Shown here one piece after another: positions 8,949 to 63,925 of a stretch of 64,000 bases of DNA. Position 1 is the first letter of the stretch. Each line of letters begins with the position of its first letter. A program made the translations under genes and the position numbers. The DNA is taken from assembly GCA_016432325.1 (NCBI GenBank), contig CP066684.1:640001-704000 (forward strand), given 5' to 3'. This stretch comes from Candidatus Aenigmatarchaeota archaeon. GTDB lineage: Archaea > Aenigmatarchaeota > Aenigmatarchaeia > PWEA01 > JACQIF01. A model generated the notes under the pieces. The model saw only the letters and a list, made by a program, of their open reading frames with translations, had not been told where the DNA came from and did not search any database.

Positions 8949-9478
8949 GGTGTGCCGGCGAGCGACTACCGGTGCGTTAGAATCACGAAGTTCCGGGTAA
9001 CACCGGGGCTAGTGTTGAGCACTGAGGAAGGTCCGCCCACCCGAGAAAGGCGCAGCGTGGAAACACGCCGTCCCGCGAGGGACGACTTGGTATCAGAAAC
9101 GGATTGGCACGGATTCGGGATGACCTCCGGCGACTATGTCTCCGCCGCCAAATGAAACGGACCAAGAGCGTGTACGGAAACTGCGGTTTCCGACACATCG
9201 GAAAGCACGGCTTTCCGAATGCTGGTGCAAGGCCAAGTAGGCCCTGATGAGGTTACGAAGGGCGGGTAGGCTGCTGTTTCCGTGCGCAAGCGCGGAAAAC
9301 TCGGAGGCGCAAGCCTTCGCAGAAGATGAATGTCGCATGGGCCTCCTGTGATGCGCGGAGTTGGCCGCGGTTCGAAACTGCGGCGAGCTGCTGCGCAGAG
9401 GGCCCTAACACAAGGTGGACTACGTCCGTTTTCGGGGGAAACCCCGAAAAGCCGGGGCCGCAAGGCCCCGCGCACACC
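8949..9478 (+). ncRNA. rnpB: RNase P RNA, enlarged (about 530 nt)
   Basis: Conserved regions GAGGAAGGTCCGCCC, CAGAAAC, TGAAACGG, GTGCAAG, AGATGAATGTCGC, AACACAAGGTGGACTAC; terminal GGTGTGC/GCACACC; TATTTAAG at 8920. Confidence 0.88.
9170..9221. mobile_element. Double-hairpin palindromic element (type B) inside RNase P RNA
   Basis: GTGTACG-hairpin-CGACACATCG-hairpin-CGAATG, same scaffold as the other copies. Confidence 0.7.
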
Positions 9479-9565
9479 ACAATTACTTCTCTTTAGCCTA
9501 AACATTCGTTCACCGAAAAGCTTTTTGTTATGGGACGCACACTAGAAGCAGTGGGTAGTGGGGAC

Positions 9566-9760
9566 ATGGGTTGCACGAATTGCGGTGGCGCCTGCAGGGA
9601 CGCGGTGTTCAGCGTAAGGTATGGCGGCCAGATGATCGACTTCTGCGGACCTGATTGCAACATTGGATTCGAAACAGGAGCGAAGGCAGGCGGAGCGCCG
9701 GGGTACAGGCTTGCAAGCTTCAAGGAGACAGGCGCGCGCACAGCGGCTCCGTCGGCGTGA
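9566..9760 (+). CDS. small TRASH/YHS-like metal-binding protein
   Basis: CTNCG...Y.G...DFCGPDC. Confidence 0.55.
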   Translation: MGCTNCGGACRDAVFSVRYGGQMIDFCGPDCNIGFETGAKAGGAPGYRLASFKETGARTAAPSA

Positions 9761-9803
9761 GCGTTCAGAACGGGTATAAATCTTTTTCGCGACTACGTCA
9801 GCC

Positions 9804-60850: not shown

Positions 60851-62677
60851 TCACCCAAGCTCCGCATTGACTCTCTGCATCACGGCCTCCGGGCTGGCGT
60901 AGTACACGGATATTATCTTCGAGACGTCCCTGTAGTCGGTTATCTTGCGCGCGCGCATCCATTCCAGCACTTTAGCTCGGTTCCCAACCTCGTTCTTTAT
61001 ATCGTCTTCCCTGACGCCGGTCTGCTCGGAAAGCCGCTTCAGTATGTAAGAGCCTTTTGCCGACACGAATGTATCGGTCTTCGGTTCCCATGCGAAGGCT
61101 TCGTGCGCCACCGGAACGTTCTTGTCCCTGTCGAAGCCCGCTATCTCGTAAACGGACGCGACGCGCCTCGCGTAGCCGTGCTTCTTCTTCTCGCGCTTCA
61201 GGAAGACGACCATATCCAGCGTTTCAATCAGGGACGGCGAGAGGTTTATCGGGGCCGTGACGAGACGGTCCATGAGTTTCTCCATGTCTTCGGCGTGTAT
61301 CGTCGAAAGGCCCGTGTGGCCCGTAGCGATTTGTTGGAACAACACGTACGCTTCCTGGCCGCGAACCTCTCCGACTATGATGTAATCGGGCCGTTGCCTC
61401 AGCGACGATTTCAGGAGGTCGAAAAGGTCCACCTTGCCGTACTCCTTCTCGCCCATGCTCGAGATGGCTTCGCGCGCCACTTCCGGAACCCAGTGCGGGT
61501 GGGTGAGCTTCAGCTCAGGAGTGTCTTCTATCGAAACTATCTTCATCTCCGGTCGTATGAACAGACTGAGCACGTTAAGAAACGTCGTCTTGCCGGTTGC
61601 CGTGCCGCCGGAGACGAGGATGCTCTTGCCGTGTTCTATGCAGTACCAGAAGTAGGCCATCATAAGCGAATCGCACGTGCCGAAGTCTATGAAGTCCGTC
61701 GGCGTGAGCGGTTGCTCTGTGAACTTTCTTATCGTGAAGTTTGAGCCGCGCCGCGCGATGTCCGTGCTTAGCGTCGCCTGCAGACGCGAACCGTCCGGCA
61801 ACGCCGCGTCAACGAGGGGTTCGGCCATCGATACGGAGCGACCGGCCTTCTGCGCGAGACGGAACACGAACGAGTCCAGCTCGTCGCGGTCCTCGAAGAC
61901 GATGTTCGTCGGCACAGAGCCTATGCGCGGGTTCCTGTGGTAGATGAAAATGGGTATTCCGGTGCCGTCGCACGATATGTCCTCGATATAGGGGTCGTGC
62001 ATCAGCGGCTCTATCTTGCCCAACCCGATGAAGTCGCGTTTGATGTAGTAGACGAGAATCGCCTTCTTTGCGGGGTCCGGATTCGCTTCGAGGACCCGTA
62101 TGACTTCGTCTATCTTCTGTTCGAGGTAGCGTTCGGCCTCCGTACTCGTGACCTTCGTGAAAGAGACGTCGAGCCGTTCCTGTAATGTATCCTTGATGCG
62201 CTTGAGAACCACCGCGTCCTCCTTGCTCAACTGCGGTTCGACGACGGCATAAACGACCGAATGCGTGGACGGATTCCACGTGATGTGCGCGTACGCGAAT
62301 ATGCGCTCTCCTTTGGCCGGTTTCGCCGGCACGAGCGGATAGACGGCGTTGATTGTTCTGATATCGTCTTCTTCGTTAGCCGACGCCTTGGCCTTGGCCA
62401 TCTGTACCTTCGGCAGTTTGAGGAGCCGGCTCTCAGGAAGCGTCGCCGACTTGCCCTTCTCGACTATCTCTATCTTCACAGGTTCGTTCTGCCGCGGCAG
62501 CCCGGTCGGGATGGCATATCCGGCGATTGGCCGGCCTTCGGCGACGCTCACAGGGAACCCCGTGCCGTAACCGCCGCCCGGCGCGCCCCCTATCCTCCAC
62601 TTCCCCGCTGTTTCGAGAAGCTCCGGATGCTTCTGCGCGGCGTCCTTGAGCAGCCGGACGAGTTTGTTGACTCTCAT
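60851..62677 (-). CDS. type IV pilus / archaellum-type assembly ATPase
   Basis: IEDISC.G, LPDGSR, FTIRKF, GGTATGKTT, IEDTPEL, LRQRPD...VGEVRG, TGH. Confidence 0.95.
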   Translation of the reverse strand: MRVNKLVRLLKDAAQKHPELLETAGKWRIGGAPGGGYGTGFPVSVAEGRPIAGYAIPTGLPRQNEPVKIEIVEKGKSATLPESRLLKLPKVQMAKAKASANEEDDIRTINAVYPLVPAKPAKGERIFAYAHITWNPSTHSVVYAVVEPQLSKEDAVVLKRIKDTLQERLDVSFTKVTSTEAERYLEQKIDEVIRVLEANPDPAKKAILVYYIKRDFIGLGKIEPLMHDPYIEDISCDGTGIPIFIYHRNPRIGSVPTNIVFEDRDELDSFVFRLAQKAGRSVSMAEPLVDAALPDGSRLQATLSTDIARRGSNFTIRKFTEQPLTPTDFIDFGTCDSLMMAYFWYCIEHGKSILVSGGTATGKTTFLNVLSLFIRPEMKIVSIEDTPELKLTHPHWVPEVAREAISSMGEKEYGKVDLFDLLKSSLRQRPDYIIVGEVRGQEAYVLFQQIATGHTGLSTIHAEDMEKLMDRLVTAPINLSPSLIETLDMVVFLKREKKKHGYARRVASVYEIAGFDRDKNVPVAHEAFAWEPKTDTFVSAKGSYILKRLSEQTGVREDDIKNEVGNRAKVLEWMRARKITDYRDVSKIISVYYASPEAVMQRVNAELG

Positions 62678-62759
62678 CGTAGCACCAGACAGATTTGCAT
62701 TTTTCAGTATATGAAACTGCGGTTTCAAACGTCCGTCGTGCTGAGATCGACGGACAATA

Positions 62760-63233
62760 TCATATCGACGGTCTGAGCAGGCGTATCGTTTTGCCGGCCC
62801 GACTGCCCTCGATTCTTATCGCGCCCGCCGAGCTTGAAACCGTGCCCGATACGAGATATGCGCCGGCCACGCCCTCTATATCCATCGTGGAGTTGGCGTT
62901 GTCTGACAACACGATGAGCCGCGCGCCGTCCGCGGCCACCGTGTACTCGCCCATCGATATCTCTTTAGGTATCTCAATCGTCACGGACGCGCTGGAGCTG
63001 TACGACAGTTCCTTGGCAACGCGTTCCATTCCTGTCATGACGAGCGCGCCTGCTTCGTTGAGCTGGTCGTCTTCTGCCAGCCCGGCGACGCGGTCGCTTA
63101 TCGCGCGGAAGCTGAAGAGTATGCTGAGCGTGATGACAAGCCCTATCGTGAAGAGGAACATCTGCTCGATTGTGAGGCTCTGCCCCTTCCTGCCCTCTAG
63201 GGCGGGAAGCTCGTTCTTGCATGCACGCATCAC
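62760..63233 (-). CDS. archaeal pilin-like protein (class III signal peptide)
   Basis: RKGQSLTIE followed by a hydrophobic helix. Confidence 0.8.
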   Translation of the reverse strand: MMRACKNELPALEGRKGQSLTIEQMFLFTIGLVITLSILFSFRAISDRVAGLAEDDQLNEAGALVMTGMERVAKELSYSSSASVTIEIPKEISMGEYTVAADGARLIVLSDNANSTMDIEGVAGAYLVSGTVSSSAGAIRIEGSRAGKTIRLLRPSI

Positions 63234-63925
63234 TCGAACCTCAGAACGATGTTCACGACGTTCAGGTCCCTACCGTCAGAGCCGCCGCCCTTTATCGTGT
63301 CGACGCCTTCGTGGACTATCGTTATGTCGTGCGTCCCCTGCCCGACGACGTCGCGCCCGCTGGTCTTCAGGTTTATCAGGTTGCCGACGCTTCCTGCCAC
63401 GGTCTCCCTGTATGCCAACGTAAGCTCGACGCTGAAGCCGCCGTCGATCGCCTCTGAGAACGCTTTTAGCGCGCCCGCGTTGGATGTTATGGGAACGACC
63501 GTGCGGTTGTCCCCGGAGAGGTAGATGTCAGAGCCCGTCGCTATTATCTGACCCGTCGTTTTGAAAGAAACCGAAACTTCGTCGTTGTATCCGTTGTCCG
63601 CAAGCCTGAGTTCTCCGGGGACGTCCACGTTCTCTATGCGTTCGCGCCCGCCGGAAGCAGCGACGCGCTCTATCTTCTCGTCCATGTCCTTCATGAGCCG
63701 CTCCATGTTGTTCATAGTCACTGTGTCCTTCTGCTTCTCGATCAGCGGGACGCCCCAGAAGTACGCGGCAGAGACGAGCACGATGAGTATGCCCGTGAGC
63801 AGCACGGCCGTGACGAGTTGCGACTGTCCTTTCACACTTTTAGAAAAAGTGTGTACGGCAACACCTGTTGCCGACATGCCGAAAAGCCGCGCTTTTCGTG
63901 CATGGGCAAAACACGGATGCTTCAT
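63230..63925 (-). CDS. archaeal pilin-like protein (class III signal peptide) with a palindrome-encoded leader
   Basis: KGQSQLVTAVLL..I......AY.WG.P. Confidence 0.85.
   Translation of the reverse strand: MKHPCFAHARKARLFGMSATGVAVHTFSKSVKGQSQLVTAVLLTGILIVLVSAAYFWGVPLIEKQKDTVTMNNMERLMKDMDEKIERVAASGGRERIENVDVPGELRLADNGYNDEVSVSFKTTGQIIATGSDIYLSGDNRTVVPITSNAGALKAFSEAIDGGFSVELTLAYRETVAGSVGNLINLKTSGRDVVGQGTHDITIVHEGVDTIKGGGSDGRDLNVVNIVLRFE
63833..63912. mobile_element. Type-A element with nested type-B element (63851-63903), in frame in the prepilin leader
   Basis: CACACTTTTAGAAAAAGT[GTGTACG-hp-CGACATGCCG-hp-CGTGCAT]GGGCAAAAC. Confidence 0.75.

Follow-up and report, generated by a model that had tools for sequence, protein, structure and literature searches.

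A dispersed family of double-hairpin elements of around 50 bp in the gene-dense genome of an aenigmatarchaeon

Copies in the window and their number in the genome

The window analysed here comprises 64,000 nucleotides (positions 640001-704000) of genome G000 of Candidatus Aenigmatarchaeota archaeon, a single contig of 874,869 bp with a G+C content of 56%; long open reading frames (ORFs) account for 93% of this 875-kb genome. Between and within its genes lie copies of a double-hairpin element of around 50 bp, the family under study, which is designated type B in order to separate it from a second double-hairpin family (type A, or 'TTCGAA'), members of which are found nested in it. Coordinates refer to the window unless they are given as genome positions.

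A covariance model built from an alignment of 18 type B copies finds eight loci in the window, beginning at 9170, 12671, 12736, 13524, 24133, 25405, 60437 (weak), and 63851. The five full copies listed in the initial annotation of the window (9170-9222, 12671-12723, 12736-12783, 13524-13573, and 63851-63903) are all among them and share the scaffold RTGYACG / CGRCATGYCG / CGTRCAY given there, and the model, a check suggested at the same time, added further copies, including a full one at 25405-25459 that was missing from the earlier list. The first copy (9170-9222), which ends on the right with the variant CGAATGC, lies within the RNase P RNA (around 8950-9400; Rfam match at 9010-9275 on the plus strand). 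The next two form a tandem pair in the spacer between two convergent genes, one for a VTT-domain protein (12063-12656, plus strand) and one for aIF5A (12819-13232, minus strand): the copy at 12671-12723 scores 60 bits, and that at 12736-12783, with a degenerate left junction TCATTCG, 48 bits. The copy at 13524-13573 is situated between the gene of a histone of 67 amino acids (13294-13497, minus strand) and a TATA-like box (around 13613-13619), downstream of the latter, and by this position it appears to belong to the 5' leader of the histone gene. The earlier statement that copies lie between genes, in the RNase P RNA, and in a coding sequence is correct for the RNase P RNA, but not for the coding sequence as far as the 13524 copy is concerned: the 138-aa ORF found there is without a protein family and looks like an antisense artefact, the real gene being that of the histone.

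At 24133-24266, where only a half (24134) had been noted, a complete element is present, with its left (L) unit at 24134-24156 and its right (R) unit, which has a degenerate end CGTACC, at 24244-24265; the two are split by a pair of nested type A double hairpins of 42 nt each (24157-24243) in the central ACA^TGT. The copy at 25405-25459 (53 bits) precedes an AAA-ATPase/MarR gene (24298-25398, minus strand), being located 7-62 nt upstream of its start codon. A DUF7289 pilin-like gene (63230-63925, minus strand) has the copy at 63851-63903 (63 bits) in its leader region; residues 8-25 of the longest ORF are encoded by this copy, and an in-frame ATG is supplied by the CATG at its centre. Concerning the locus at 60437-60490, first listed as a variant at 60439-60488, the double hairpin TACCGG...CCGTAAATACGG...CCGGTA does lie inside the 5' arm of a CACGCTTTT/AAAAGCGTG palindrome, but its membership in type B is weak (15.6 bits, E 0.44), and it probably belongs to another family.

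In the whole genome, the covariance model recovers around 25 intact type B loci and around 10 split or degenerate ones, i.e., around 35 copies. A strict scan for single hairpin units, which required the junction bases and a CG-closed stem, yielded 44 units, as against 0-1 in each of 20 dinucleotide-preserving shuffles, and CG-closed hairpin pairs with a spacing of exactly 6 nt number 50, as against 10-15 in shuffles. With a relaxed scan, in which any two mismatches were tolerated and the basal pair was not demanded, 48 units were found in G000, 34 in G045 (the metagenome-assembled genome JBAQNA01, of the same class but another family), 2 in the element-free comparison genome G019, and 1-5 in shuffles. 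The single-strand folds of six window copies have z-scores from -4.9 to -8.0, none of 200 shuffles being equally stable. The family is real and far beyond chance; similar hit numbers in dinucleotide-shuffled sequence had been named as an observation that would speak against it, and the shuffles gave practically no hits.

The window further contains an archaeal 23S rRNA gene (3786-6989), which exceeds the Rfam model by around 217 nt, a surplus that agrees with several short introns, and in which the covariance model finds no type B copy. A tRNA gene at 43126-43232 (minus strand), found by Rfam and missed by ARAGORN, carries a 34-nt insertion in its anticodon loop.

Structure and modularity of the element

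Type B is an inverted head-to-head dimer, around 50 bp long, of a bulged hairpin module of around 25 nt. The L unit reads TGY-A-CG[stem of 6-9 bp, loop of 3-5 nt]CG-RCA, and the R unit, TGY-CG...CG-T-RCA, is the L module inverted and equipped with different arms. One base is bulged beside the CG closing pair, and the basal TGY/RCA triplet pairs (3 bp) and covaries: in 16 of 18 copies, the left-junction Y is complementary to the R with which the centre begins (the remaining two exhibit T-G), and in all 18, the Y that closes the centre is complementary to the right-junction R. Combinations of Y and R between the left and right junctions or within the centre fit much more poorly than this extension of the hairpins. 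The covariation therefore indicates two abutting hairpins, each with a base of 3 bp across a one-base bulge; a parse into an outer stem and a central palindrome was rejected, as Y and R covary with their hairpin-extension partners (34 of 36) and not mutually (around 10 of 18). In the two-hairpin structure, 99.1% of the cells are paired and 14 of the 18 pairs are changed on both sides; none of 500 shuffles paired as well, no slid register came close, and ViennaRNA predicts the same bulged hairpins unprompted. The ends GTGYACG / CGTRCAC constitute terminal inverted repeats, a mark of classical MITEs (miniature inverted-repeat transposable elements), and by covariation the pairing partner of each is the centre rather than the opposite end.

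Among the stem pairs of the relaxed scan, 615 of 632 are Watson-Crick pairs, 7 are G-T, and 4 are A-C, and the basal Y-R pair is of the Watson-Crick type in 75 of 82 units, although the scan left it free. Since G-T pairs are nearly absent and show no excess over A-C, type B is a palindrome at the DNA level, held by Watson-Crick complementarity on both strands, rather than a selected RNA helix with G-U pairs. The consensus of the 5' arm, read inward from the closing pair, is C-G-R-R-A-A-S-S, its variation consisting mostly of exchanges between A-T and G-C, and the loops mostly measure 3-4 nt. The initial annotation had described arms that vary freely and always stay complementary; the complementarity is borne out (97-99% Watson-Crick), whereas the free variation is not, given the CGRRAA consensus.

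The order of the units is strict, R always following L and never the reverse, and in 12 cases the two adjoin without a gap (0 nt), three further cases having 42 nt between them and one 84 nt. Within an element, the two arms are in no case identical, such that the whole element never forms one long hairpin, and they are no more similar to each other than random partners, for which reason an interpretation of L and R as diverged inverted duplicates was abandoned. A derivation of the arms from local target sequence was likewise rejected for type B, own-arm 7-mers being present in the flanks of 8 of 82 units as compared to 7.3 expected.

Nested inserts belong to one other double-hairpin family and are situated exactly at the central ACA^TGT of type B, in steps of 42 nt. 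Besides the element at 24133, split type B copies with nested hairpins are found at genome positions 103684, 441666, and 758966; their L and R units are 42 or 84 nt apart, and the inserts lie at 103708-103749, 441693-441734, and 758994-759035, always in the CATG core. These inserts are bordered on both sides by the dinucleotide TG or, in inverted inserts, CA, and this resembles a target duplication of 2 bp. The 'TTCGAA' unit itself comprises 40 nt (GTTCGGCC-loop-GGCCGAAC plus TTTTCGRAC-loop-GTYCGAAAA), and many further members exist elsewhere, hairpin pairs at a spacing of 7 nt numbering 57 as against around 11 in shuffles.

Within type B, an identical L unit (26-28 nt including the loop) is found at genome positions 24719 and 441667, with unrelated R units and unrelated flanks; therefore, the single hairpin, rather than the dimer, is the unit of identity and the CATG core the place of joining. 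The paralogous copies at genome positions 515998-516051 and 851739-851792 are identical save for all three bases of the L loop (GGA vs. TAC), and their flanks differ by around 20%. Stems and junctions are thus constrained and loops free, the latter seeming to turn over much faster than the former.

The type B consensus avoids stop codons in all six frames. Intact dimers are stop-free in every frame in 15 of 23 cases, and the mean number of frames with a stop per dimer is 0.43, as compared to 3.2 in shuffled copies and 2.0 in random genomic 53-mers; TG is always followed by Y, and TA always by C. The lengths are not confined to multiples of three, and the frame is therefore filtered by selection after insertion. 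A design free of stops in six frames would offer a simple explanation for the persistence of the element in a gene-dense genome.

Occupied and empty sites, and distribution among relatives

In the RNase P RNA, alignments with G001 (a partial genome of 0.5 Mb, same genus) and with G009, G017, and G013 (same order) show that a block of 50-51 nt at the exact position of the element is absent from all four, which read RTGY-GGTGCAAG at the insertion point. The Rfam score of the G000 RNase P RNA is 56 bits, below the gathering threshold of 84 bits, such that a default search misses the gene, whereas the relatives reach 104-150 bits. With four relatives empty and scoring higher, the polarity is that of an insertion in the G000 line, and elements of this kind can therefore hide RNA genes from annotation. 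In the VTT/aIF5A spacer of G001, the two stop codons are around 3 nt apart, so that both the 12671 and the 12736 copy are absent; around 62 nt are absent at the 25405 site, upstream of the AAA-ATPase, in the same genome; and its histone gene has a TATA box 23-29 nt from the ATG, only the heptamer GTGTACG being found at the place of the element. Fixation of copies at all orthologous sites had been named as an argument against mobility, and a search for empty sites had been proposed; such sites exist at the RNase P RNA (four relatives), upstream of the AAA-ATPase, and in the VTT/aIF5A spacer.

Two further copies are situated in protein-coding genes. The copy at genome position 40416-40471 lies in a conserved PolB-like ORF of 829 amino acids, the orthologues of which in G045 and G019 lack exactly 18 residues, and in G045, a protein of 572 amino acids contains 18 residues, due to a copy at C7:15485-15538, that are lacking in G000 and G019. 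The inserted peptides are alike (...ARRKAKLS... in the PolB-like protein, ...ARKAKLSG... in the 572-aa protein of G045), because the same frame of the element is read. The copy at genome position 851739 is part of an insertion (intron) of around 165 nt in the T-loop of a tRNA, and the tRNA of G001 is without the insertion. Judged from these alignments, gain or loss of copies is shown for orthologous sites, among them the RNase P RNA and, as in-frame changes, the two protein-coding genes.

Paralogous sites within G000 give a similar picture. The module CAC(A/G)CTTTT-loop-AAAAG(T/C)GTG followed by GGCAAAA is present four times empty and three times with type B between GTG and GGGCAAAA, the empty pilin-leader sites (AAAAGTGTG^GGCAAAA) being located at genome positions 60827, 683061, 829688, and 829748. 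This small module, together with GGCAAAA(A)C, recurs with compensatory changes from A-T to G-C (genome positions 60827, 635392, 683061, 829688, 829748, and others), and in the window it forms part of the leader coding sequence of the pilin-like gene. Concerning the target, (G)TGT pre-exists at the left junction of three independent empty sites, and target redundancy amounts to at most 0-2 nt (TG) at the pilin-leader and RNase P sites, most copies being without TG after their right end. A general duplication of TG is unsupported beyond the trio of pilin leaders.

Among 61 relatives searched with the covariance model, matches were obtained only in G000, G001 (8 loci), and G045 (around 30 loci), plus a weak one in G031; in 20 other genomes of the same order, the model found none, and neither was type B found in 368 kb of related metagenome loci. 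In a scan for the junction pattern through one genome per prokaryotic species, the matches listed comprised around 75 chance matches in bacteria, all at or below 30 bits, and true matches (49-61 bits) only in the Aenigmatarchaeota metagenome-assembled genomes JBAQNA01 and DAIDAN01. Two pattern scans of the IMG/VR viral contigs returned 8 contigs, all of them chance matches without hairpins, and a viral or plasmid carrier thus finds no support. The patchy distribution fits horizontal spread or repeated loss. Some genes are unusually similar between G000 and G045, e.g., that of a 214-aa protein with 60% identity as compared to a median of 43%.

Proposed spread of the element and comparison with known systems

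We consider it likely that the type B sequences of around 50 bp are non-autonomous insertion elements, present in a few lineages of Aenigmarchaeota (DPANN archaea), which spread as DNA by a structure-specific activity acting in trans; they are, or once were, mobile. The initial annotation had already proposed a non-autonomous mobile element defined by structure, and this part of it is supported by filled and empty sites, in-frame insertions, patchiness, and nesting, whereas its attribution to the repetitive extragenic palindromes (REPs) with their REP-associated tyrosine transposases (RAYTs), or to palindrome-associated transposable elements (PATEs), is not. According to the mechanism envisaged, type B would spread, or would have spread, as DNA, the activity in trans recognising the folded single-stranded hairpin, its bulge, and the flanking TGY/RCA, and insertion would take place at (G)TG(T) or next to it, no long stretch of the target being duplicated. 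In outline, this would resemble the hairpin-guided 'peel and paste' of IS200/IS605 and REP/RAYT. IS200/IS605 uses a guide sequence, and pairing of the internal RCA with (G)TGT would act in the way this guide does; the enzyme would be one other than a Y1 transposase that is encoded in G000. Copies would survive where they are tolerated, i.e., in spacers, 5' leaders, introns, a junction of the RNase P RNA, and surface loops of proteins. The element probably stays unspliced in the RNase P RNA and in mRNA transcripts, and the open, in-frame copies in genes are consistent with such retention.

Several observations weigh against this interpretation. A six-frame search of the whole of G000 for Y1_Tnp (PF01797) gave no match, whereas 6 control genomes matched; the TnpB zinc-ribbon domain was found neither in G000 nor in G001 or G045, and a reverse transcriptase was not found in G000. 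No copy flanks a candidate transposase gene, and no L...R pair encloses a gene. The HUH/Y1 transposase that had been suggested as the mover from outside the window is accordingly lacking, as a Y1 gene of the IS200/IS605 or RAYT type, from the entire single-contig genome, and the proposed search for TnpA/RAYT genes flanked by the motif ended with no such gene in G000 and no L...R pair around any gene. There are very few near-identical copies with unrelated flanks, and the family, rather than having transposed recently, may be old and now be kept by selection or gene conversion; the identity of the 515998 and 851739 copies in spite of their diverged flanks hints at constraint on the element and a possible host function. 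The nearest metagenome relatives have an aIF5A of only 54% identity, and no strain-level presence/absence polymorphism was obtained from them; the exact termini and any duplication of 0-2 nt are therefore ambiguous.

Some candidates for a mover were examined individually. Reverse transcriptase genes are present in G001 and G045, but this type of mover was discarded, as there is none in G000 and the G045 gene stands in an apparent diversity-generating retroelement. That locus (C46, around 15950-19560), a probable retroelement of this kind, comprises the reverse transcriptase gene, a target gene, and a GC-rich hairpin (GGGGGCGAAGCCCCCC), and trains of type-B-like hairpins adjoin the 3' end of the target gene. 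G000 possesses two tyrosine recombinases, one of which may be of the usual Xer type; the second (genome position 783238-783720) adjoins three small genes with 58-60% identity to G045 (median 43%), and the region from 781830 to 783720, with a type B copy (784474) close by, may represent an integrated element that is shared horizontally. Candidate nucleases of G000 would include a 434-aa PD-(D/E)XK protein (genome position 143718-145022) and enzymes of the Hjc or XPF type. Phyletic subtraction (present in G045, not in G019) left 71 G000 ORFs, including those of ribosomal proteins, PCNA, RtcB, and TFB, which makes G019 unusable as a filter, and the 214-aa protein was dismissed as a candidate since it also occurs in six element-free genomes. 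At genome positions 246841-246909 and 258392-258460, inverted repeats of 69 nt (93% complementary) each contain a type B copy in tRNA-like sequence. The 11.5 kb between these copies (at 246856 and 258395), which are nearly identical, hold ORFs of 393, 911, 340, 191, 307, 316, 177, and 455 amino acids as well as a NUDIX protein; a Pfam search of the ORFs of this block gave one NUDIX domain, two sub-threshold matches, and no recognisable transposase, and the block may be an integrated or invertible island.

A more far-reaching idea, for which we see a small chance, is that of an undescribed system for the insertion and joining of DNA that is devoid of a transposase gene and has the single bulged hairpin as its working module, and in which a structure-specific enzyme or the replication and repair machinery would cut and join at CATG/TGY cores, build dimers and hairpin trains, and plant them in genes, the RNase P RNA, and tRNA genes. 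If true, this would be a system from which reduced archaeal genomes visibly obtain expansion segments, new peptide loops, and intron material.

Among the rival explanations, a spread by host replication and repair, again without a transposase, has to be taken as a serious one, even if we regard it as rather unlikely. By template switching or short-patch gene conversion, with the junctions GTGYACG / CGRCATGYCG serving as microhomology anchors, hairpin blocks would be copied between loci. This agrees with the lack of transposases of the tested families (Y1, TnpB) and of reverse transcriptase in G000, with the (G)TGT motif that already stands at the left junction of three empty sites, with the change of arms always as complementary blocks, and with the failure to find a consistent target duplication, and it would readily accommodate the identical single L unit shared by two elements with unrelated R units and flanks. 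But microhomology at the right junction is not evident, and such a process alone leaves unexplained the conserved bulge, the strict order of L before R, and the presence of the family in the distant G045 together with its absence from 20 genomes of the same order.

We think it improbable that type B is a host-functional DNA or RNA motif (a protein-binding site, a stabilising or terminating hairpin, or a replication or segregation signal) that is kept by selection, the insertions being secondary. The very strict complementarity, the location of many copies at gene ends and in 5' leaders, and the pair at 515998 and 851739, which differs in the loop only while the flanks differ by around 20%, could all be read in this way, but the PolB-like reading frame, the RNase P RNA, and a tRNA intron contain copies as well, and both orientations occur; a search of the relatives, which have the same genes, failed to find the family in nearly all of them, and G-U pairs are almost absent, unlike in functional RNA helices. 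A role as mini-introns, cut out by the archaeal splicing endonuclease, would explain why copies are tolerated in the RNase P RNA and in genes, the genome being rich in short introns (tRNA, 23S rRNA) and one copy lying within a T-loop intron of a tRNA; we nevertheless hold it to be very improbable. Archaeal introns of the bulge-helix-bulge type have two 3-nt bulges around a 4-bp helix, whereas type B has two 1-nt bulges on one strand, 6 bp apart across the junction, with no central 4-bp helix, and neither the folds nor the covariation give a bulge-helix-bulge motif, so that this reading was rejected. Moreover, both insertions in genes measure exactly 18 codons and are open, as expected if they are translated, and in the tRNA, type B is only part of the intron of around 165 nt.

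Small palindromic elements are known from bacteria (REPs, and the Rickettsia palindromic elements, RPEs) and from organelles (double-hairpin elements and GC clusters), and a search of the literature found no description of such a hairpin family in DPANN archaea. Type B has entered the RNA of an essential ribozyme and the gene of a replicative polymerase in a genome without Y1/IS200-IS605, TnpB, or reverse transcriptase, and would thus constitute a clean case for asking by what route a structured mini-element can move if no transposase gene belongs to it, and in what way reduced genomes turn insertions into expansion segments, peptide loops, and intron material.

Bacterial REPs and REPINs (REP doublets forming hairpins) are short imperfect palindromes tagged by GTAG or CGTC, mostly head-to-head dimers and often heterodimers, with compensatory variation in the stems and tens to hundreds of copies, some of them in genes; the CGTC class is without a dedicated transposase (PMC3733652). 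Type B is equally a short imperfect palindrome, a head-to-head heterodimer with compensatory stems, but its alignment consensus is TGYACG / CGRCA with a fixed 1-nt bulge and neither a GTAG nor a CGTC tag, its two hairpins abut at the CATG core without a spacer, and its host is an archaeon (DPANN) with no RAYT gene in the genome. PATEs, which stand with the IS200/IS605-derived MITEs of haloarchaea, have ends in common with the IS1341-type elements of their own genome (PMC3119063). Like these, type B is archaeal, non-autonomous, and hairpin-forming, and insertion beside a motif without duplication would fit the IS200/IS605 style; unlike them, it is accompanied neither by TnpA (G000) nor by TnpB (G000, G001, G045), and it is ten times shorter. 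Judged by the missing tag and transposase, type B appears to be a member of neither the REP/RAYT nor the PATE group.

RPEs, which are bacterial elements of around 100-150 bp, insert in frame into protein-coding and RNA genes of a small, gene-dense genome. Type B has similarly been inserted in frame (in the PolB-like gene and the 572-aa gene of G045) and in the RNase P RNA, adding a peptide and leaving the gene unbroken, but it is only around 50 bp long (18 residues), open in all six frames, and unrelated in sequence.

The hairpin-forming elements of mitochondria, such as the double-hairpin elements (DHEs) of Allomyces, the GC clusters of yeast, and the RHE of sponges, are dispersed between genes, in variable regions of rRNA, and in ORFs, and have no known transposase (PMC2800124, PMC4478555); DHEs are without flanking duplication and are reported to remain in transcripts (PMC2800124). 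Type B shares with DHEs the organization into two adjacent hairpins and the dispersal in a compact genome. In contrast to the organellar elements with their AT-rich or GC-cluster contexts, it resides in the genome of a free cellular archaeon, has no sequence in common with them, and possesses a defined bulged module as well as a CATG core that is targeted by other modules.

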